From UHGV virus genome UHGV-0021337: a stretch of 64,000 nt of DNA, one strand, 5' to 3'. Shown in pieces: positions 27,545-57,156 of this stretch; within the stretch, counting starts at the first letter, position 1; each line of letters begins with the position of its first letter. The stretch is from a virus. The notes under the pieces are model-generated. The model had not been told where the DNA came from. It searched no databases and saw only the letters and a program-made list of their open reading frames with translations. The position numbers and the translations under genes were made by a program.

Positions 27545-28288
27545 ATGAACGAAAACAACATTGAACTTTATTTAGGTAACTGGAAAGAACGATTTAAAAC
27601 AATTCCCGACAAATCTATTGATTTGATTTATACCGACCCACCGTATGATATAGGCATATTTAGACCAGGTTCAGGTGGCAGCGTTAACAACATAATGAAG
27701 TTAGATAAGACGTTGTTGCCTATAAATCAAATAACCGAAACAAAATACAATCTAACAGAATTCTGCGACGAAGCAGTTCGAGTTATGAAAGATATCAATA
27801 TTTATATATGGTGTAACAAGCCTCAGATAATTCATTACTTCAATTACTTTGTTAACGAGTTAGGATGCAAGTATGATATTCTATTCTGGAATAAAACAAA
27901 TGCTCTACCGACATATTCAAATAAATACTTAACGGATTGTGAGTATCTATTAGTTTTTCGTAAAGGGAAAGCAGCGTTACATCCAGAATGTTATGAAGAT
28001 GCAAAAACTGTTTTTCAAAGTCCTATAAATCGAGAAAACAAGATTTATAAACACCCTAACATAAAACCTCTTGAATTAGTTCTACGTGGTATTAAAAATT
28101 CATCAAAGGAAGGCGATATAGTTCTAGACCCATTCATGGGAAGTGGAACCACTGGCGTTGCATGTAAACAAACCGGCAGGAAATTCATTGGATGTGAGAT
28201 AAATCCAGAATTCTTTGAAACAGCACAGCAACGAATACTTGGAACTGAGTATCAAGTTACGTCTACCAAAGGAGGTTTGTGGGATTGA
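27545..28288 (+). CDS. DNA methyltransferase, beta-class (N6-adenine or N4-cytosine)
   Basis: Motif IV (DLIYTDPPYD) is near the N-terminus. Motif I (VLDPFMGSGTTGVA) is near the C-terminus. The order IV then I indicates the beta class. Confidence 0.8.
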   Translation: MNENNIELYLGNWKERFKTIPDKSIDLIYTDPPYDIGIFRPGSGGSVNNIMKLDKTLLPINQITETKYNLTEFCDEAVRVMKDINIYIWCNKPQIIHYFNYFVNELGCKYDILFWNKTNALPTYSNKYLTDCEYLLVFRKGKAALHPECYEDAKTVFQSPINRENKIYKHPNIKPLELVLRGIKNSSKEGDIVLDPFMGSGTTGVACKQTGRKFIGCEINPEFFETAQQRILGTEYQVTSTKGGLWD

Positions 28289-37238: not shown

Positions 37239-37506
37239 AGATGTTGCAAAGATACTAAAAATTGATAACTTTAACAGTAATGCTAGTGGCGATTCCATAA
37301 CATACACGCTTGACACAGACAACGATTTTGGTTCAGTTTATACTGTATTAGAATCAAACGATGATTTTCAAGAATCACAAGATAACTATATGTTGAATCC
37401 TACGATAGCCAACCTTGAATATGTATATAATAATGATTATAGAATTGAGTTGAAAGGAAATTTTGACTCGAACACATATTCAGTAACAATTACGGAGAAA
37501 CAATGA
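37231..37506 (+). CDS. hypothetical protein
   Basis: ORF. Confidence 0.4.
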   Translation: MIEDVAKILKIDNFNSNASGDSITYTLDTDNDFGSVYTVLESNDDFQESQDNYMLNPTIANLEYVYNNDYRIELKGNFDSNTYSVTITEKQ

Positions 37507-38159
37507 ATATAATAACAGACATCGAAAAACTGTCAAACAGATGTGATGAAGTTCTTGATTTAAGAAAAGAGAATAAAATAGTTCAACAAATAATCTTAGC
37601 TCTTAAGTCTAAGATTAGAGAAGATAAACTTGTAGGTCTAGCCGCTAACCAGCTCGGGTTCGATAAAAGAATAGTTGTTGTCGCATTTGGAGACGATTTA
37701 AGGACTTTCATAAATCCTATAATATCAAATGCAGAAGGATTAACTGTGTCAATTGAAACCTGTCCAAGTTTACCTGACAAGAAATTTTTGCGTTTACGAA
37801 ACCAGAAAGTTTCCGTAACATATACAGACCCTCTCGGTAAAATACTGACTGCAAAAGATTTGATTGGTAAAGCTGCGTTTGTAATGCAAGAACTCATAGA
37901 ACACTTAGATGGAGTAGTTCTTTCGGATATAGGTATGGAACTAGAAAAAGATTTTGACGAAGCGCCTATCGAAGAAAAAGAAGAGCTAATAAAAGCATAT
38001 TGTGACACAATGGATGTAAAATTACGTGATGTTAAGAAAGAAATCGAAGACACTCCAGAACTAAAGAAAATTTCCGATGCTGCTAATTTAATAAATAAAA
38101 TTCAAACAGGCAATGTTAAAGTAGAGCTTGTTGACAAGAGTATAAAGAAAGCCAAATAA
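37503..38159 (+). CDS. peptide deformylase-like protein
   Basis: GLAANQLG matches PDF motif 1 (GLAAxQ). ETCPSLP is in the position of motif 2 (EGCLS). QELIEHLDGV matches motif 3 (QHExDHLxG). The protein is 218 aa. Confidence 0.55.
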   Translation: MNIITDIEKLSNRCDEVLDLRKENKIVQQIILALKSKIREDKLVGLAANQLGFDKRIVVVAFGDDLRTFINPIISNAEGLTVSIETCPSLPDKKFLRLRNQKVSVTYTDPLGKILTAKDLIGKAAFVMQELIEHLDGVVLSDIGMELEKDFDEAPIEEKEELIKAYCDTMDVKLRDVKKEIEDTPELKKISDAANLINKIQTGNVKVELVDKSIKKAK

Positions 38160-45897: not shown

Positions 45898-48396
45898 ATG
45901 GCAGGATCATTGTGGGGCGAGAGTTTCGAGATTCCTGAAACTCCAAAAGTTGTTAAAAAAGTACTTGAGAAAGTAAATCATCCGAAAGATACAAAAGTTT
46001 CAGTTACAAAGACTATTAAATCTAACAAAGTTTCCGACAGAGATAAGTTGGTTTTAATTCGTGAAAATGTCAACAGAATTTTAGGCAAGTATGGTGATGA
46101 TACTCAGTTAATAAAAACAAGAGAAGAGTTAACAAAGTACATTGACTTTGCAATAAATTGTAGTGAGATAGCAATCGATACAGAAACAGATAATAGTTTG
46201 GACCCGATAACGTGTAAGTTAATGGGTGCGTGTATCTATTCTCCTGGACTTAAAAATGTTTATATTCCTGTAAATCACGTAGATATAAATACTCGTGAAC
46301 GATTTGATTGGCAGCTTACAGAGGCAGATATCAAAGAAGAATTTGACCGTTTAACAGCTGCCAAAACAAAAGTCATAACGCACCATGGAAAGTTCGATTA
46401 TGAAGTTCTAAAAATGACTACAGGTTATGTAATGTCTGTTTATTGGGATACTCTTGTTGGTGAAAAAATACTTGATGAAAACAAGCATGAATACGGCTTG
46501 AAACATCTTTATAGAGATAAATTTGACCCCGAACAAGAAAAGTATGACATAGAAGAATTGTTTGAAGGTGTCGAGTATGCAATAGTGGAGCCTGAGTTGT
46601 TTGCGTTATATGCAGCAACAGATGCTTACATGACTTACAAGTTATATAAATGGCAATTAGAACAATTTGACATTCCTGACCATAGCAGAATTAAGAATTT
46701 ATTTCTTAGCATTGAAATGCCTGTCTTACAAGTTTCCGCAGAAATGGAACTTGCAGGTATATGCTTAGATCAAGAATATGCAAAGAGGTTAAGTGCTAAG
46801 TACGCAAAGAAGCTTGAAGATATTGACGAAAAAACAGAAACGGAAGTTGCTAAATACGAAGACATCATATCTCAGTGGCGATTAACTACAGACGCAAACG
46901 AACATCCTATCAAGAACGGTAAGATGCAGAGGTCAAAAAGTGAACAATTAAAGTTTCCTGTAAACCTTGATAGTCCAACACAGCTCGCTATCTTATTGTA
47001 TGATGTTCTTAAATGTGGTGTTGTAAATAAGAAAAAGCCCAGAGGAACTGGAGAAGAAGAACTTACAGCTATTTATGCAAAGTACAAGATAGAACTTTGT
47101 AACATAATACTAGAGAGAAGAGGTCTTCTTAAGTTGATTACAACATATATAGATAAACTTCCACAGTGTGTAAATCCAGCAGACGGAAAACTCCACGCTA
47201 AGTTTAATCAGCTCGGCGCGGGCACAGGCAGGTTTAGTTCTAGTGACCCAAATCTTCAAAACATTCCGTCTCACGAAAAATCAATAAGAATGTTATTCGA
47301 AGCAAGTCCAGGGTGTTGCCTTTGTGGTGCGGATTTCTCGGCCCAAGAACCTCGTCTTTTAACACAGTTCAGCCAGGATTCTAAGATGCTTAACGCATAC
47401 AAAGAAGGAAAAGACTTGTATGCAATAATAGCTCAACAAGCCTTTCATAATGGATACTGGGATAACATGGAGCATTACGAAGATGGTTCTCCTAATCCAG
47501 AAGGCAAGAAAAGACGTGGTATCGCAAAAACTTTGCTCTTAGGAATAATGTACGGAAGAGGTTGTGCATCTATTGCAGACCAAATAGGGTGTAGTATTCC
47601 CGAAGCTCAAAAAATCATTGATACATTCTTCGAAAGTTTTCCTAAAGTAAGGGATTGGGTGACTAAAACAGAACAAGATGCTAAAAAACTAGGTTATGTT
47701 GAAGACTATTGGGGACGTAGAAGACGACTTCCTGATATTATGAAGCCTAAGTATACAATAACTGCTAAGGGTGAAGACACATCTATTTCAAAAGATTTCA
47801 ACCCGTTGTTAGGTGCATTAGGTCTCGTTAAAAATACACAGGGCACATTGACTGAAAAATGGCAGAATGCATTGTCAAAAATGAAAGGTCGTAAAGAGTA
47901 CGAGCAGATAAAATTGAACGCTGCAAAAGAAGGTGTGACGATAATCGATAATGGTGCATTTATAGCACAAGCAGAAAGGCAGTGTGTAAATGCACGTATT
48001 CAAGGTTCTGCTGCAACGTTAACTAAACTAGCAATGATTGAAGTATTCCACGATGAAGAACTTAGAACTCTTGGATTTAAACTTTTACTTGCAGTTCACG
48101 ACGAGTTGATTGGAGAATGCCCGATTGAAAACGTGAAAAAAGCAGCTGAACGTTTGTCTTATGTTATGGTTAATGCTGGAGTTAAGAATAACGTCGATAC
48201 ACCTATGAAGTGTGATGCAGAAATAGAGGACCATTGGTATTTCAACGAATATAAAACATTGATTAGGAAGGAATACGCAAAATATATTAGTGCAGGAGAT
48301 AGCAAAGAAGTTGCGTGGAGCAAACTTTGTGAGGAGCATTGTGAATCAACTCCTGAGCAGTTAAAAATAATTCTTGAAAGCGAGGAGGTAGCGTGA
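45898..48396 (+). CDS. DNA polymerase, family A with 3'-5' exonuclease domain
   Basis: Exo I is AIDTETDN. Motif A is ADFSAQEPRLL, motif B is RRGIAKTLLLGIMYG, motif C is VHDELIGE. Confidence 0.9.
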   Translation: MAGSLWGESFEIPETPKVVKKVLEKVNHPKDTKVSVTKTIKSNKVSDRDKLVLIRENVNRILGKYGDDTQLIKTREELTKYIDFAINCSEIAIDTETDNSLDPITCKLMGACIYSPGLKNVYIPVNHVDINTRERFDWQLTEADIKEEFDRLTAAKTKVITHHGKFDYEVLKMTTGYVMSVYWDTLVGEKILDENKHEYGLKHLYRDKFDPEQEKYDIEELFEGVEYAIVEPELFALYAATDAYMTYKLYKWQLEQFDIPDHSRIKNLFLSIEMPVLQVSAEMELAGICLDQEYAKRLSAKYAKKLEDIDEKTETEVAKYEDIISQWRLTTDANEHPIKNGKMQRSKSEQLKFPVNLDSPTQLAILLYDVLKCGVVNKKKPRGTGEEELTAIYAKYKIELCNIILERRGLLKLITTYIDKLPQCVNPADGKLHAKFNQLGAGTGRFSSSDPNLQNIPSHEKSIRMLFEASPGCCLCGADFSAQEPRLLTQFSQDSKMLNAYKEGKDLYAIIAQQAFHNGYWDNMEHYEDGSPNPEGKKRRGIAKTLLLGIMYGRGCASIADQIGCSIPEAQKIIDTFFESFPKVRDWVTKTEQDAKKLGYVEDYWGRRRRLPDIMKPKYTITAKGEDTSISKDFNPLLGALGLVKNTQGTLTEKWQNALSKMKGRKEYEQIKLNAAKEGVTIIDNGAFIAQAERQCVNARIQGSAATLTKLAMIEVFHDEELRTLGFKLLLAVHDELIGECPIENVKKAAERLSYVMVNAGVKNNVDTPMKCDAEIEDHWYFNEYKTLIRKEYAKYISAGDSKEVAWSKLCEEHCESTPEQLKIILESEEVA

Positions 48397-48659
48397 CTTT
48401 TACATTAGATGGCGTAGAGGCAATAGGACTAGTAGCTACAGTCATTCTTGTTGCTTCTATGTGTTTCAATACTAAAACTTTTATCGGAACATTACTTATG
48501 CGAGTTTTGAATCTTGTATGTAGTGTTGTGTGGATTATATATGCCTGTGCTCATACGCCAGGACTTTTATCAACTTTGGTTTCAAACATTTTGTTAACAA
48601 TTATCAATTTGTATTTTCTTATCATTGCCGTAAAAAATAAAGATAACTTTGGTAAGTAA
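48393..48659 (+). CDS. small 3-TM membrane protein (GTG start, overlaps the polymerase stop)
   Basis: Three hydrophobic helices, loosely SemiSWEET/holin-like in size. Confidence 0.4.
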   Translation: MTFTLDGVEAIGLVATVILVASMCFNTKTFIGTLLMRVLNLVCSVVWIIYACAHTPGLLSTLVSNILLTIINLYFLIIAVKNKDNFGK

Positions 48660-48683
48660 ACAAAATAGTTTGTATACATATAT

Positions 48684-48743
48684 AGAGGGATGTTCAGTTG
48701 TCTACTCCCGCCCTCTTAAAAATAAATTAAAACGGAGACTATT
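48684..48743 (+). promoter_or_regulatory. candidate preQ1-I-like riboswitch / structured leader upstream of the YhhQ-family transporter
   Basis: AGAGGG-(21-nt loop AUGUUCAGUUGUCUACUCCCG)-CCCUCU is followed by the A-rich tail UAAAAAUAAAUUAAAACGGAG. For comparison, the B. subtilis preQ1-I aptamer is AGAGG-UUCUAGCUACA-CCCUCU-AUAAAAAACUAAGGA. The loop CUCC can pair with the SD GGAG. The loop is longer than the consensus. Confidence 0.3.
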
Positions 48744-49463
48744 ATGAAGAAATTATTAAACGAATACAAAATTTTATTACGAAATGTACCTAGTCTAATT
48801 GTTGGCTTGTTTATTGTTGCAGTTGTTAGCTGTAATATACTTGCAAATAAAACAATTGTAAGTGTTGGAGATTGGTTCGCACTAGATGGAGGAATTGTTG
48901 TTAGTTGGCTTATATTCTTGTGTATGGATATGGTAACTAAACGATTCGGACCAAAAGCAGCAACGCGTTTAACTTTAGTTGCAGCAGGTGTTAATTTACT
49001 TGTGTGTGGTTTATTCTACATTGTTAGCGTTATACCTTCTTCAGCTGATGACTATACAGCACTAAATGGAATTTTAGGCGGTACTTGGTTTATTCTGATG
49101 GATAGTACAATAGCATTTATTGTCTCAGGAATAATCAACAATTTTGTAAACGCTGGTATAGGTAAAGCGTTCAGGAAAAATCCAGACGGAAAACTTGCAT
49201 ATGTTTCAAGAACTTATGTATCTACGTTTATTGGACAATTTATTGACAACTTAATTTTTGCAGTTTTAACCTTTATGGTATTCAGCCCTATTTTCTGGGA
49301 CGGATTTAGTTGGACATTCTTACAGTGTGTAACGTGTTCTTTAACAGGAGCAATTGCTGAATTATTGATGGAAATCATCTTCTCGCCTCTTGGATATAAA
49401 ATTTGCAATAAATGGAAAGCAGAAGGCGTTGGCAATGAATATCTTGAATTGGTAAAAGCCTAG
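48744..49463 (+). CDS. yhhQ: YhhQ/COG1738-family queuosine-precursor (preQ0/preQ1) transporter
   Basis: About 6 TM helices. LDGGIVVSWLIFLCMDMVTKRFGPKAATR aligns with E. coli YhhQ TWGAFSFPFIFLATDLTVRIFGAPLARR. FIDNLIFAVL aligns with NVSDTLAFF. Confidence 0.7.
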   Translation: MKKLLNEYKILLRNVPSLIVGLFIVAVVSCNILANKTIVSVGDWFALDGGIVVSWLIFLCMDMVTKRFGPKAATRLTLVAAGVNLLVCGLFYIVSVIPSSADDYTALNGILGGTWFILMDSTIAFIVSGIINNFVNAGIGKAFRKNPDGKLAYVSRTYVSTFIGQFIDNLIFAVLTFMVFSPIFWDGFSWTFLQCVTCSLTGAIAELLMEIIFSPLGYKICNKWKAEGVGNEYLELVKA

Positions 49464-49474
49464 TTCATACAGAG

Positions 49475-49511
49475 ACGACACGAAATACGGCATCGTGTCG
49501 TTTTCTTTTTG
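49475..49511 (+). terminator. rho-independent terminator after the transporter
   Basis: ACGACACG-aaatacggcat-CGTGTCGT followed by TTTTCTTTTTG. Confidence 0.75.
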
Positions 49512-51020: not shown

Positions 51021-51971
51021 ATGCCATATTATTTTTCTGGAGCATATAATCAGGCCTTGAAAATACGGTTAAATGTTGACCAACTATTCTCAGTGTATCA
51101 TGAGAAAAAATTGATTGAAAAAACAATCTTATATAAAAGAGAACATCCTGAATATACCGCAAAAATTTTCTTAGACAGTGGAGCTTTCACGCATTTCCAG
51201 AATATGAAGAAAAAGGGAATCACGCTTACTGACAACGACATAAAGGACTACACAGATAAATATCTTTCTTTCTTAAATGAATGGGGCGAAGACTTGGAGT
51301 GCTTTGTTGGCGTCGATAGTGTACCAAATCCAGAACACGTTGACCCAACGTTTGTTCATAAAACTTGGGCAAATTATTTGTATATGTGGGAAAGGTTAAA
51401 ACCGAGTATTCGTCATAAATTGATTCCTGTTTTCCACTTTGGGGAAGATTTCAATGAATTGAAGAAGTGGCTTGAATATAGACATCCAGATGGAAGTAAA
51501 GTTGAGTATCTTGGTCTTGCAATTTCGTTGGAAGGAAATCGAAAAGTAAGAATTGCTTGGGGACAAGAAGCCGAAAGAATAATCAAAGCATCTTCTAATC
51601 CAAATGTTAAGACTCACGCGTTTGGTGTTGGGGTTAAGAGCGTTATGGAAAATATAAACGTAACTTCGACGGATGCCACGAGTTGGTTGAAGCGTGCAGC
51701 ATATGGAATGATTTCGGTAGACGATAAGACTGTATATATAAGTGACTTGCAAGAACAGAAGTCCGACGGCAGACATCTTAAAGATAAGTCACTAGCTTAT
51801 CAAGAAGAAGTATTTAAGAAAATAAAAGAAAAAGGCTTTACGCTTGAGCAGTTAGCTACAGACAATTACGCGAGAGCGGAATTTAACATTTTGGATACGT
51901 TAGAATGGTATAATAAATTAGAAGCATCAAAACGTATCGAAAAGGGCGCAAAGGTTGATTTAGGTTGGTAA
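51021..51971 (+). CDS. dpdA: DpdA-like DNA-guanine transglycosylase (TGT superfamily, no zinc subdomain)
   Basis: IFLDSGAFTHFQ matches the TGT catalytic DSGGFQ motif. HAFGVGVKSVMEN matches LMGVGKPEDL. VTSTDATSWLKRAAYG matches FDCVMPTRNARNG. RBS AGGAGG. Confidence 0.6.
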   Translation: MPYYFSGAYNQALKIRLNVDQLFSVYHEKKLIEKTILYKREHPEYTAKIFLDSGAFTHFQNMKKKGITLTDNDIKDYTDKYLSFLNEWGEDLECFVGVDSVPNPEHVDPTFVHKTWANYLYMWERLKPSIRHKLIPVFHFGEDFNELKKWLEYRHPDGSKVEYLGLAISLEGNRKVRIAWGQEAERIIKASSNPNVKTHAFGVGVKSVMENINVTSTDATSWLKRAAYGMISVDDKTVYISDLQEQKSDGRHLKDKSLAYQEEVFKKIKEKGFTLEQLATDNYARAEFNILDTLEWYNKLEASKRIEKGAKVDLGW

Positions 51972-51982
51972 TCTCAGACGAG

Positions 51983-53869
51983 ATGAAACAAGATGTTGTT
52001 GAGTTCTATAAAACAAACTCAACAACAATTACTTGTGAACAATTTCATATAACTTGGGACAGGCTTAAAAAGATACTGGCTGAATATGATGTAGCTCCAC
52101 ACGATGCAAAAATTAATAGAGAACTGACATCGTTATACAGATTCGGAGTTACTAATGCAGGAAAATCTGTAGAGTTACAGGAAAAAGCAAAACAAACAAC
52201 AGCGTCAAGATATGGTAGTTCAAATTACAGGAATCACGACAAAGCTCGTCAGACCCGTATAAACAAAGATGGCTCATTAGAAGCATCATATAGAAAAGCT
52301 CAGAAAAGACAAGAAGAAACGAACTTGGCTAAGTATGGAGTTAAAAGTTATTTTCAAACTGAATTATTTCAAGAACAGTCTAAGGATACTTGCTTAGAAC
52401 GTTACGGCAAAGAGTTCTATCGTCAAACTCAAGAATATCAGGACCGCGTTAAAGAAACATCTTTACAAAAATATGGAGTAGAACACTATACTCAATCTGA
52501 CCAGTATAAAACAAAAGTAAGAGATACTTGCCAAGAAAGATACGGCAACGATTCGTGGTTTGGCTCGGAAGCTGGTAAGAATGCTATCAAAGACAGTTGT
52601 TTACAGAGGTATGGTGTTTCTAACGCTATGCAGTCGTATGAAGTGATAACGCGAGCAAAAGAAAAGCTTGTTCAGAAATATGGTGTTGACAACGTTATGA
52701 AATCTTCAGATATCAGAAGTAAGCAAGCACAGTCGAGTCGTTGTTCTAATTTTGAGCAAGAAGTTCAGCATTGGTTGTCAAATAGAAACGTTGCTTTTAC
52801 TACTCACTATGTTATTAAACAAGGAGGTTTGATTCACGAGTTTGATATTGCTTTATACGAAGGTAATCAGCTCGTTTGTCTAGTAGATTGTGACGGGACT
52901 TACTATCATGGATACAACGACGATATAAATGGTAGATCTGTAAACCCATACATAGATGAATATAGAATGCTGCTTGTTCCTAAAGATGTTTTATTTCTTG
53001 TGTTACTTCCAGACACTTGGCAAGAGCAGCTTGAAGAATACTTTAATAACAAACAAAGTTACGAGCAAGTCATATTCACCTGGTGTAAATCTATAGACTT
53101 TCCATATCCTAACATAGACAATGTTGAGGCTTCCTATAAGTCACTGGTAAAGGCAGATGTGAGTAAATTTTCGATGAACGCTCGATATGGAATGCGAGTT
53201 ATCGACGCTTTTCATAAATCTATCTGGAAAGCAAATAGAAAAGGTTTCTTGAGCCCTTATGCTGCTTGGCGTGATGAAGAATTGCTACGCAGATGTATCA
53301 ATAATCGTATAATTTATAAAGGTACTAACTTAGACCCTTCCAAGGTTCTATACGGTTTTAGTGCTGCAAAGATTGCTCCTAAAGTGTCGATATTTAATCC
53401 TTATCTGGCTAAGTATTTGATAAATAAGTACTTGAACGAATTTACAACTGTTTTTGACCCTTGCTCTGGATATAGCGGCAGACTTTTAGGCGCAACATCA
53501 TTGGGTAAACATTATGTAGGACAAGATATAAATGCTACAACAGTTGAAGAATGTTTACAAATACGTGATAAGCTCAATCTCGACGCTGAATTATCTGTTG
53601 TTGATTCTTTGAGTACTACAGGAAGTTATGAGGCTTTATTTACCTGTCCTCCTTATAGTGACAAAGAAAACTGGAACCAAGAAATTTTGAATCTAACATG
53701 CGATGAATGGATTACTCGATTTATAGAAAACTATAAATGTAAAAGATATTTATTCATTGTAGACAAAACAGAAAAGTATAAAGATTATATTGTTGAAGAA
53801 ATAGAGAATAAATCACATTTTAGTGAGAATATTGAATATGTTATATTGATAAATAGAGGTAATATATGA
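51983..53869 (+). CDS. tri-domain protein: eight tandem YG repeats of about 22 aa, a Vsr/DUF559-like PD-(D/E)xK nuclease domain, and a C-terminal MTase-like domain
   Basis: Repeats are of the type ..(K/R)YG(V)...(Q)..(E/D)....K.. T (KYGVKSYFQTE..., ERYGKEFYRQTQ..., QKYGVEHYTQSD..., and so on). The middle domain is HEFDIALYEGNQLVCLVDCDGTYYHG (D...(V/I)DCDG..H, Vsr/I-Bth0305I-like). The C-terminal domain has FDPCSGYSGRLLGA (motif I) followed by LFTCPPYSD (motif IV-like). The start codon is uncertain (TTG 51965 or ATG 51983/51992). Confidence 0.5.
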   Translation: MKQDVVEFYKTNSTTITCEQFHITWDRLKKILAEYDVAPHDAKINRELTSLYRFGVTNAGKSVELQEKAKQTTASRYGSSNYRNHDKARQTRINKDGSLEASYRKAQKRQEETNLAKYGVKSYFQTELFQEQSKDTCLERYGKEFYRQTQEYQDRVKETSLQKYGVEHYTQSDQYKTKVRDTCQERYGNDSWFGSEAGKNAIKDSCLQRYGVSNAMQSYEVITRAKEKLVQKYGVDNVMKSSDIRSKQAQSSRCSNFEQEVQHWLSNRNVAFTTHYVIKQGGLIHEFDIALYEGNQLVCLVDCDGTYYHGYNDDINGRSVNPYIDEYRMLLVPKDVLFLVLLPDTWQEQLEEYFNNKQSYEQVIFTWCKSIDFPYPNIDNVEASYKSLVKADVSKFSMNARYGMRVIDAFHKSIWKANRKGFLSPYAAWRDEELLRRCINNRIIYKGTNLDPSKVLYGFSAAKIAPKVSIFNPYLAKYLINKYLNEFTTVFDPCSGYSGRLLGATSLGKHYVGQDINATTVEECLQIRDKLNLDAELSVVDSLSTTGSYEALFTCPPYSDKENWNQEILNLTCDEWITRFIENYKCKRYLFIVDKTEKYKDYIVEEIENKSHFSENIEYVILINRGNI

Positions 53870-55550: not shown

Positions 55551-56273
55551 ATGGCAACAGCATTAGTTACAGGAACAAGCTCGGGAGTGGGTAAAGCAAC
55601 AGCTCTTAAACTTCTAGCTATGGGAATAGATGTTATAGGTCTTGATTGGAAAGATAGTACAATTCATAGACCTCATTATTTTCACTTCAAATGTGATGTA
55701 AGCAAGTATGAAGAACTTCCTTCGCTTGACAGTTTAGGAGGCATTGAGTACATTGTTAACAATGCAGGAATAGTAACACCTAAAGCAGACGCTATCGCAG
55801 TTAATCAGATTGGATATATAAATGTATTGCAAAAATATGCGGATAACAATCCGAAGTTAAAAAGCATTGTAATTATTGGTTCATCTGCCTCGGTCAAGGG
55901 CTACGACAATCGAGAATATTGCACTTCGCAAGGTGCAAGAGATGCATTAACCAAGTGGGCCGCTAACAACTATGGTAACGACCCTAGACACGTTTTAGTC
56001 AACGAACTTCGTCTCGATGGTATTGTAGCAGCAGACCCGGAAAAGGGTATTGAAGGTACTACTTTGGAACCTGAGCTTTATGCAGCAGATGGATTGATGG
56101 ACCAAATAGCTAATCTGAGCATTTTAAAAAGGTTGGCTACTGTCGAAGAGATTGCAGAATGGATTTATTTTATTCTTGTAGTTAACACAATTGTAACTGG
56201 GCAGATAATAGATGTTGACGGAGAACTCATGGGAGCTTTCAAATTTGTTCCTTACAAAGGGTGGAATGACTAG
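55551..56273 (+). CDS. short-chain dehydrogenase/reductase (SDR) family protein
   Basis: N-terminal Rossmann motif ALVTGTSSGVGKA (TGxxxGxG). NNAG motif VNNAGI. The catalytic YxxxK is non-canonical (YCTSQ). Confidence 0.7.
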   Translation: MATALVTGTSSGVGKATALKLLAMGIDVIGLDWKDSTIHRPHYFHFKCDVSKYEELPSLDSLGGIEYIVNNAGIVTPKADAIAVNQIGYINVLQKYADNNPKLKSIVIIGSSASVKGYDNREYCTSQGARDALTKWAANNYGNDPRHVLVNELRLDGIVAADPEKGIEGTTLEPELYAADGLMDQIANLSILKRLATVEEIAEWIYFILVVNTIVTGQIIDVDGELMGAFKFVPYKGWND

Positions 56274-56274
56274 T

Positions 56275-57156
56275 ATGAAGATAATGTGCTTAACACCTTG
56301 TCTGATGTTAGATAATACCAGAGCAATAAACGCTAAGTCAATACAAAATAACATAGATGTTCTTAAACTCGATGAATATGTAATCTATGACCAGATGTTT
56401 GCACCTAGCGATTTTAACTCGAAATGTACATATATAGGTCACGCAGATAAACGAATGGGCTGGGCAGTACCAAGAAATGCTTTACTTAAGTATTTTTATG
56501 ATTCTGACTTTGACTATGCGTTTTTTATTGATGCAAATTCTGTTCCGTCTAAACCTACGCTAAATGATTTACTGAGCATAATAAGAAGTCTTAGAGCAGG
56601 TGAGTTATCTTTCTGCGACGCTATTTTTAGCACATTAGGTATGTGGGTAAGTCAAGAGCGTATAATGTGCAAATCCTTACCTGACCACCTCGAAAATGTT
56701 CATCTAGTACCCGCTCGTTGTGATAAAAGTTACAACTGGATGCACGGATTATTTGTAAAGAATTTCAAGAAGTATTATGGCCAGGAATTCTATATGGATG
56801 AAAGATGTCATGTATTAGAAGGAACTCCAGAAGATGTATTCTTTGCTCGTCTATTAAGGAAGTATGCAAATTGTTGGGTTGCTCCTACAGTGGTAATCAA
56901 CAAACCTTCTTCTAATGCTTCTTGTACAATGGCAAATGGTAAAGGTACTTATGATTATCCGCCTGTATTGTTTGATAAAGAAGATGAATACATTTCTGAA
57001 CTCTCTCAGAAAAACGGATATCATCACTGTAATAGAAGTGTACGACCTAGCGAAGTTGTTATACCTCGCGTTTCGGAGTATAAAGATTTAGTTACTCCGT
57101 ATAAATCAAGACAAAAGAAAGTACAAGAAACTTCAAGAAAACAAGTACTTTTTTAA
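56275..57156 (+). CDS. family-2-like (GT-A fold) glycosyltransferase (start revised to ATG 56275)
   Basis: GWAVPRNALLKYFYDSDFDYAFFIDANSVP fits the GT2 pattern (G.A.ARN.G......DYI.FLDADD). RBS AAAGGGTGG. The gene overlaps the SDR stop. Confidence 0.45.
   Translation: MKIMCLTPCLMLDNTRAINAKSIQNNIDVLKLDEYVIYDQMFAPSDFNSKCTYIGHADKRMGWAVPRNALLKYFYDSDFDYAFFIDANSVPSKPTLNDLLSIIRSLRAGELSFCDAIFSTLGMWVSQERIMCKSLPDHLENVHLVPARCDKSYNWMHGLFVKNFKKYYGQEFYMDERCHVLEGTPEDVFFARLLRKYANCWVAPTVVINKPSSNASCTMANGKGTYDYPPVLFDKEDEYISELSQKNGYHHCNRSVRPSEVVIPRVSEYKDLVTPYKSRQKKVQETSRKQVLF

Follow-up and report, generated by a model that had tools for sequence, protein, structure and literature searches.

A probable expanded preQ1-I variant in the leader of a phage queuosine-precursor transporter gene

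Analysis of a 64,000-nt stretch of the virus genome UHGV-0021337 (the window) identified an RNA element in the leader of a yhhQ-type queuosine-precursor transporter gene, which is probably an expanded preQ1-I variant. There is little doubt that this leader is a conserved functional RNA element, and a relationship to preQ1-I is likely. With moderate confidence, 48684-48738 is read as a preQ1/preQ0-responsive translational OFF switch in the yhhQ leader, an expanded type I-like relative whose OFF polarity, like its ligand and its pseudoknot, is inferred. A first-pass annotation had proposed a preQ1-class riboswitch at this site. The comparative data (a graded series of leaders, covariation in P1, the ligand-contact positions and island-like conservation) favour that proposal, while the Rfam searches, the P2 helix and the 21-nt loop that accompanied it do not. 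Half of the case fails on direct tests, as there was no Rfam match and the stability of the hairpin was ordinary; the comparative data then reverse this outcome.

The leader at 48684-48746 reads AGAGGG-AUGUUCAGUUGUCUACUCCCG-CCCUCU-UAAAAAUAAAUUAAAAC-GGAG-ACUAUU-AUG, letter for letter as it had been transcribed before. The 5′ strand of the P1 stem (AGAGGGAUG, AGAGGG(AU)G) is located at 48684..48692 (+) and the 3′ strand (CCGCCCUCU, C(CG)CCCUCU) at 48708..48716 (+). P1 contains six Watson-Crick pairs, 48684-48689 with 48711-48716, above which the unpaired A48690 and U48691 face G48710 and C48709; the closing G48692-C48708 pair stands above this 2x2 mismatch, and its C48708 would form the floor of the pocket. 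The loop (UUCAGUUGUCUACUC, 48693..48707 (+)) is 15 nt long, with the same length and UUC...UC ends as the loops of the type A and type B leaders described below. P1 is followed by L3, an A-rich tail of 16 nt (UAAAAAUAAAUUAAAA, 48717..48732 (+)), the last A of which corresponds to A30 of type I aptamers, and by a conserved C at 48733 (+), which closes an AAAAC motif (48729-48733) found in nearly all lineages. This C corresponds to C31 of type I and C30 of the Tte aptamer, the role of which has been described (PMC8752633, PMC11625349). The Shine-Dalgarno (SD) sequence GGAGA (48734..48738 (+)) abuts the conserved C, and both L3 and the SD are single-stranded in the minimum-energy folds. The whole element, with nine P1 positions, the 15-nt loop and the 16-nt L3, is approximately 50 nt. 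An intrinsic terminator at 48684-48716 was considered and rejected, as the stem is followed by the A-rich UUAAAAAUAAA with no U-run, and no terminator was called there.

By homology, a nine-position P1 with a 15-nt loop is a better reading than a 21-nt loop. The loop had been described earlier as longer than canonical, which holds, but the 21 nt then counted are better parsed as 15 nt above a P1 that extends through the 2x2 mismatch. The same register was picked independently by model R1, a covariance model built without window-type sequences, and is also indicated by two related leaders (L026 and L005), which have 10-position stems with a single mismatch beneath the closing pair, at the spot equivalent to the 2x2 mismatch of the window. 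RNAfold favours a register slipped by one base at the top of the stem, with a G48692-C48709 pair and a bulged A48690. The register of the P1 top is ambiguous because the CCC run permits this slip. The closing G-C pair is held in both registers (G48692-C48708 by homology, G48692-C48709 by RNAfold). The bases before the P1 3′ strand are U48706-C48707 in the homology register and C-C in the slipped register, with a cytosine present in both. The folding energy of the hairpin was unremarkable (z = +0.73 and +0.46), with equally good folds in 133-152 of 200 shuffles.

The ATG at 48744 opens a 239-aa ORF (48744..49463 (+)), the regulated gene, which matches PF02592 (Vut_1) with an E of 1.5e-26 and TIGR00697 ('queuosine precursor transporter') with 46.8 bits, just below the cutoff of 50.95. 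Homology searches found 4391 yhhQ homologues. The precursor transporter previously annotated downstream of the leader is thus confirmed. The statement that preQ1 riboswitches control transporters of the yhhQ type also agrees with the literature, in which yhhQ is controlled by several preQ1 riboswitch classes (PMC5372724). Terminator calling placed a hairpin with a U-run after yhhQ at 49487..49501 (+), which is likely the end of the transcription unit. A sigma-70 promoter at the upstream TATATA/TATAAT was rejected, as it is unconserved in a relative of this leader (L006) and a start there would drop the P1 5′ strand.

PolA (45898-48396) and an 88-aa membrane-like ORF are encoded upstream of the leader. 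The nearest matches to PolA, at about 38% identity, are the polymerases of Clostridium phage phiCTP1 and Streptococcus phages Dp-1 and MS1, which indicates that the phage infects a Bacillota host; no relative at the DNA level was found among GenBank phages by blastn. A DpdA/TGT-like transglycosylase is encoded 1.5 kb downstream of yhhQ (51021..51971 (+); phrog_887 queuine tRNA-ribosyltransferase, E 2.5e-38). The 'DpdA-like' neighbour of the first-pass annotation is therefore real, and it is the likely consumer of the imported base. DpdA inserts dPreQ1, and the DNA of Dp-1 carries dPreQ1 (PMC6884629). A search of the window ORFs at 27-62 kb, from a genome of roughly 130-150 kb, found no preQ0 synthesis genes.

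Several neighbouring genes were noted. The 88-aa ORF (48393-48659 (+)) encodes three hydrophobic segments, overlaps the stop codon of polA and is conserved in three related loci (L001, L239 and L242); it had no match in Pfam, PHROG or NCBIfam, and its product could be a small membrane protein that partners the transporter. The DpdA-like gene is overlapped at its 3′ end by a 634-aa ORF (51965-53869 (+); DUF7487, with homing-endonuclease-like PHROG matches). In the closest homologues (L224-L238), yhhQ is always followed by a short-chain dehydrogenase (SDR; adh_short), with QueF next in L224. A similar SDR is present in the window at 55551-56273, 6 kb downstream, and may be an unrecognised partner in 7-deazaguanine salvage. 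The window also encodes a peptide deformylase (37503-38159 (+), PF01327, E 5e-21) and an N6/N4 DNA methylase (27545-28288 (+), PF01555, E 2e-36), which would be a second DNA-modification function beside DpdA.

The search of the whole window against Rfam 15 at the gathering score identified no preQ1 family. When 48600-48800 (201 nt) was searched at E<=10, as the earlier annotation had proposed for this site, RF00522, RF01054 and RF02680 were all absent. The folds of preQ1-II (RF01054) and preQ1-III (RF02680), with an HLout pseudoknot or 80-100 nt, are unfit as the element is too short, and neither family matched at gathering or at E<=10. For RF00522, which has a gathering threshold of 39 bits, scores among the relatives reached 20.2 bits in L019 and 11.4 bits in type A, while type B had no Rfam match at E<=10. 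The window and 38 loci searched against Rfam at gathering gave tRNAs only. Minimal preQ1-I aptamers have a 5-bp P1, a loop of ~10-13 nt and an L3 of ~8 nt, in an aptamer of ~34 nt, which the window element exceeds. The 'CUA' tail of type I, the U32 of which pairs with A12 in the ceiling of the pocket, is replaced by CGG in the window and CCA in type A; L236, L019, L026 and L005 have CUA. Formal membership of preQ1-I therefore failed on three counts, namely the missing Rfam match, the excess size and the absent 'CUA' tail. The leader position of preQ1-I on genes of queuosine synthesis or salvage is shared, with the element directly upstream of yhhQ.

Approximately 240 loci that encode YhhQ relatives or carry related leaders were gathered. 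Their leaders form a graded series from textbook preQ1-I type I, through type B with its 15-nt loop, to type A and the window form. At the canonical end, four loci in a bacterial context (L236, L237, L238 and L023) encode YhhQ proteins 69-70% identical to that of the window. The leader of L236, L237 and L023 is AGAUAG-UUCGAAACCAUC-CUAUCU-AUAAAUAAAAC-UAGGG followed by a terminator, and L238 belongs to the same group. In a comparison with the printed consensus, it agrees position by position with RF00522, aGuGG-UUCGuAAaCcUC-CCaCu-AUAAAAAAC-UAAGg, in which UUCGuAAaCcUC is the loop; the L236 loop is 12 nt. A viral contig, L019, carries a leader with a loop of 13 nt, for which the best Rfam match is RF00522 (E 0.023), below gathering. 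A 152-kb phage contig with the gene order yhhQ-SDR-queF (L224) has the leader AGCAG-UAUCCUAAC-CUGCU-...AAAAC-AAAAAGGAG, which parallels the Tte aptamer.

Type B was represented by 12 distinct sequences (L036:1289-1340, L027, L029, L037, L039, L041, L046, L060, L063, L064, L074 and L077) of the form (C/U)GACAG-UUCGUUUGUACCAUC-CUGUC(G/A)-UAAAACAAAAC-CAGGAC, with one or two terminator hairpins downstream. Covariation is seen at the outer P1 pair, which changes from C-G to U-A. Type B corresponds to the L236 leader with ~3 nt added in the loop, an insertion shared by the window loop, and from its sequence it seems to be the transcriptional counterpart of this aptamer. Type A leaders (L104-L223, for example L104:1605-1661 on the minus strand, together with L034, L053, L054 and L091) have the form AGCGrAG-UUCGGCCUCUAAAUC-CUyCGCU-UAAyAAAAUAAAAC-CAAGGAG and are located directly before yhhQ in at least 113 genomes of gut or rumen Bacillota. 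The aptamer is thus found on two platforms, with terminators in type B and L236 and with an SD in type A and the window, a modularity that is typical of riboswitches.

Some yhhQ leaders depart from these forms. In L076 (1385-1481) and L078, a GC-rich hairpin (CGCCGGGGCU...AGCCCCGCCG) is inserted in the L3 of an otherwise typical type A leader. Although outside the training set, L076 still scored 37 bits with model R1; structured RNAs typically tolerate insertions in loops, as with this L3 hairpin. The leader of L002 (5870-5980) has the aptamer tail wired to mutually exclusive helices (AAAACUU:GAGUUUU and GAGGAG:CUCCUU). This relay also holds an 8-bp SD sequestor (AUCUCCUU:AAGGAGAU), and the leader folds at z = -2.05. 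Three sets of phage yhhQ leaders (L007-L014 with L018; L015-L017; L004 with L093) follow the plan of stem, loop, A-rich tail and SD with other loops, of 20 nt (UUUUGUAUUCCUUUGAAACC), 15 nt (UUUAAUUCUUCAAUC) and 19 nt (UUAGGCAUUCCUUAUAAUC), respectively, some of which end in CC and not UC; they may be further subtypes. Seven loci with the order amidase-yhhQ-SDR (L225-L231; YhhQ identity 69-71%) have a 46-nt AT-rich spacer without a hairpin. As these have no leader structure, the element is not universal in the YhhQ clade.

All seven type I ligand-contact positions are present in the window in the homology register. The equivalents are U48693 for U6, U48694 for U7, U48706 for U16, C48707 for C17, A48732 for A30 and C48733 for C31, with G48692-C48708 for the G5-C18 floor. 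C48695 is the equivalent of C8. The roles of these positions in type I aptamers have been described (PMC11625349; also PMC8752633). U48693 and U48694, directly after the P1 5′ strand, are kept in types A and B and in L236, L019, L026 and L005, and the specificity cytosine, equivalent to C48707, is invariant in the family. The window loop is identical to the type B loop at 9/15 positions and is invariant in all six window-type variants. Judged by sequence, the element probably functions as preQ1-I type I aptamers do, and descent from such an aptamer is probable.

For the genome scan, the type A loop-plus-tail signature was used, with P1 and the downstream gene left free. The signature was present in at least 120 genomes, nearly all of them gut or rumen Bacillota. 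Among the at least 120 matches listed, 113 were directly before a yhhQ homologue and three were truncated by contig ends; the four others represent one conserved Acidobacteriota coding sequence, a chance match. In 120 aligned sequences, 87% of P1 cells were paired, compared to 49-58% in slid controls, and the covariation score was reached by 0/500 shuffles. The base pairs at 7-36 were AU (71), CG (20), UA (5) and GC (4), and those at 9-34 were CG (103), AU (13) and GC (4), with zero unpaired cells. The closing G-C pair was invariant (120/120), and the unpaired loop and tail bases were better conserved than the stem. Of the two helices for which covariation had been considered earlier, P1 covaries strongly across these 120 sequences and P2 has no statistical support.

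Conservation of the window form itself was island-like. Compared with L006, the YhhQ of which is 48% identical, the element was identical at 54/55 positions (98%), whereas the flanks, made up of 120 nt of upstream sequence and the initial 450 nt of the coding sequence, were 63-64% identical, no more than shuffled sequence gives. The changes in the six window-type variants were confined to the 5′ half of L3, the flanks and the outermost P1 pair, which is changed from A-U to U-A in L001, a compensatory change. A viral scan with the 17-mer of the window loop returned only known contigs and one chance coding match (L103).

The best match of model R1 in the 128 kb searched was 48684-48739, with 16.5 bits and an E of about 0.07. 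The noise level was given by a chance match at 57072-57121 (+) with 14.1 bits, so that the match to the window is marginal, being suggestive and not decisive. The candidate at 57072-57121 (CGGAG-15 nt-CUCCG with an A-rich tail) was rejected, as it lies inside the ORF 56212-57156, has no UU...UC ends and is not followed by a start codon. Type B scored only ~3 bits with R1; as type B is clearly related, covariance model scores understate relatedness for a motif this short. MAFFT placed types A and B out of register when they were aligned together, and no joint model was built. A descriptor was also composed from other members, consisting of a G-C-closed stem, a 12-16-nt loop with UUC...UC ends, an A-rich L3 of 8-22 nt ending in AAAC, and an SD. 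In the 64-kb window this descriptor, which was composed after the window had been seen, matched once, at the leader, and matched 0/400 dinucleotide shuffles. In 1.26 Mb of loci, all 116 matches were family members, from the canonical L236 to the window type.

The pairing of a loop CUCC with the SD GGAG, which had been put forward earlier as the pseudoknot, was not supported, being no better than with shuffled loops (p = 0.5 for the window). In the homology register it would consume the U-C expected to contact the ligand. Loop-SD duplexes in general had a mean z of -0.1 over 13 lineages against composition-matched shuffles. The length of L3 increased with the length of P1 (rho 0.85, n = 13 lineages, p = 2.5e-4; rho 0.71 in the new leaders alone), with a minimum L3 of 8, 10, 13, 16 and 17 nt for a P1 of 5, 6, 7, 9 and 10, respectively. 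Such scaling is expected if the tail runs back along P1 and is unexplained for a mere spacer, and it lends indirect support to an H-type topology. By analogy with the Bacillus subtilis aptamer, which we read as L1 UU(C), CUAG, CUACA and C, the window loop could be laid out as L1 UUC, the P2 strand (A)GUUG, L2 UCUACU and then C. This layout would give the pairs G48700-C48733, U48699.G48734 and U48698.G48735, and would bury the first two SD bases.

The element was compared with known riboswitches. The preQ1-I type I aptamers (for example in Carnobacterium antarcticum; RF00522) share with the window a G-C-closed hairpin, a loop that in the homology register starts with UUC and ends with UC, its C abutting the P1 3′ strand, and an A-rich L3 closed by a conserved C next to the SD of a Q-precursor salvage gene. 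The canonical members L236 and L023 are likewise placed before a 69-70% identical yhhQ. The window differs in its P1 (nine positions with a 2x2 mismatch vs 5 bp), loop (15 vs 12 nt), L3 (16 vs 8 nt), the CGG in place of CUA after the tail C, the missing Rfam match and the phage host. The B. subtilis queC preQ1-I aptamer (type II), which the first-pass annotation had quoted correctly as AGAGGUUCUAGCUACACCCUCUAUAAAAAACUAAGG (PMC10639078), shares the AGAGG/CCUCU stem, a loop with UUC...CUAC and an A-rich tail. However, its 3′ strand is preceded by AC and not UC, and its control is transcriptional, by way of a terminator, whereas the window has an adjacent SD and is longer by ~3 nt in the loop and by 8 nt in L3. 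The preQ1-I type III riboswitch of Escherichia coli controls the same transporter family, its pseudoknot burying the SD (PMC10622847, PMC11625349). In the window, too, the SD starts immediately after the tail C. Type III differs in having the smallest and most stringent model and AC at the specificity base, and in being confined to Pseudomonadota. A precedent for phage-borne riboswitches is provided by the glutamine riboswitches of marine phages (Melnitz, pelagimyophages and cyanophages; PMC9004378), which have another ligand, fold and set of regulated genes.

In the proposed mechanism, P1, with nine stacked positions closed by G48692-C48708, would bear the 15-nt loop, and the 16-nt A-rich tail would run back along the P1 groove, so that AAAAC and the leading bases of the SD reach the loop. 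The docked tail would close an H-type pseudoknot on a 7-deazaguanine base, either preQ1 or possibly preQ0. In the absence of the ligand, only P1 would form, the SD would be free and YhhQ would be made. This default ON state is suggested by the minimum-energy folds, which leave L3 and the SD single-stranded. Ligand binding would tie up the tail together with the 5′ edge of the SD, and translation of the importer would fall (OFF). For the phage, this would provide feedback on the uptake of the base that the DpdA-like enzyme inserts into DNA.

An extension of the preferred reading, which we regard as rather unlikely, is that the long-stem leaders with 15-nt loops (types A, B and the window) are an uncurated subclass with an enlarged pocket and altered specificity or stoichiometry (for example, for preQ0 or queuine), captured by the phage to sense the host pool of its own DNA base. 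A ligand-independent leader, in which the hairpin and A-rich spacer set mRNA stability or translation efficiency, or bind a protein or sRNA, is a shade less probable again. Such a leader would be compatible with the ordinary stability of the hairpin and with the demonstration of P1 alone and not P2, and A-rich leaders raise translation in AT-rich organisms. However, the greater conservation of loop and tail bases than of the stem is typical of a binding pocket, and the scaling of L3 with P1, the joining of the aptamer to either terminators (type B and L236) or SDs (type A and the window), and the strict linkage to one transporter family also argue against it.

Slightly more doubtful still is an element of the same architecture with another ligand, in which the expanded loop and a ceiling of CGG or CCA instead of CUA would adapt the pocket to whichever base this YhhQ clade carries, be it preQ0, queuine, or some other 7-deazapurine or purine. 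The three expanded types are invisible to RF00522, and the position after the conserved C departs from type I. The joining of yhhQ to QueF in L224 suggests that preQ0 is imported there, and the YhhQ family carries both preQ0 and preQ1 (PMC5372724, PMC11625349). Against another ligand, all of the positions that make the alpha-site and beta-site contacts of preQ1 are kept, and the canonical type I aptamers that precede 69-70% identical YhhQ genes argue for one shared ligand. The absence of function, with the hairpin arising by chance or serving as a terminator of the upstream 88-aa ORF, is very improbable, for although the folding z was about 0 and Rfam matches were absent, the hairpin is followed by A-rich and not U-rich sequence with no terminator called, the element is 98% conserved against flanks at random level, L001 carries the compensatory change and none of the 400 shuffles matched the descriptor.

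Riboswitches have been described as 'a rare feature in phages' (PMC9004378), and no report of a preQ1-type riboswitch in a phage or on a phage DNA-modification pathway was found in the literature searched. The type A and type B loop sequences were likewise not found, and earlier alignments (McCown et al. 2014) may include such variants. If the reading of the leader as an expanded preQ1-I variant is correct, the smallest riboswitch fold would accommodate a stem, loop and tail of sizes far beyond those in present models, and Rfam-based annotation would overlook a variant present in >100 genomes of gut and rumen Bacillota. The graded series, from a 12-nt loop to a 15-nt loop and then to a longer P1 and L3, would be a natural experiment on the coupling of L3 and P1 length in an H-type pseudoknot, and would supply ready constructs for structural and ligand-specificity work. 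The window would contain a rare viral riboswitch, the first that we could find tied to a DNA-modification pathway, and phages with 7-deazaguanine-hypermodified DNA would control the import of the precursor by direct sensing of the metabolite.
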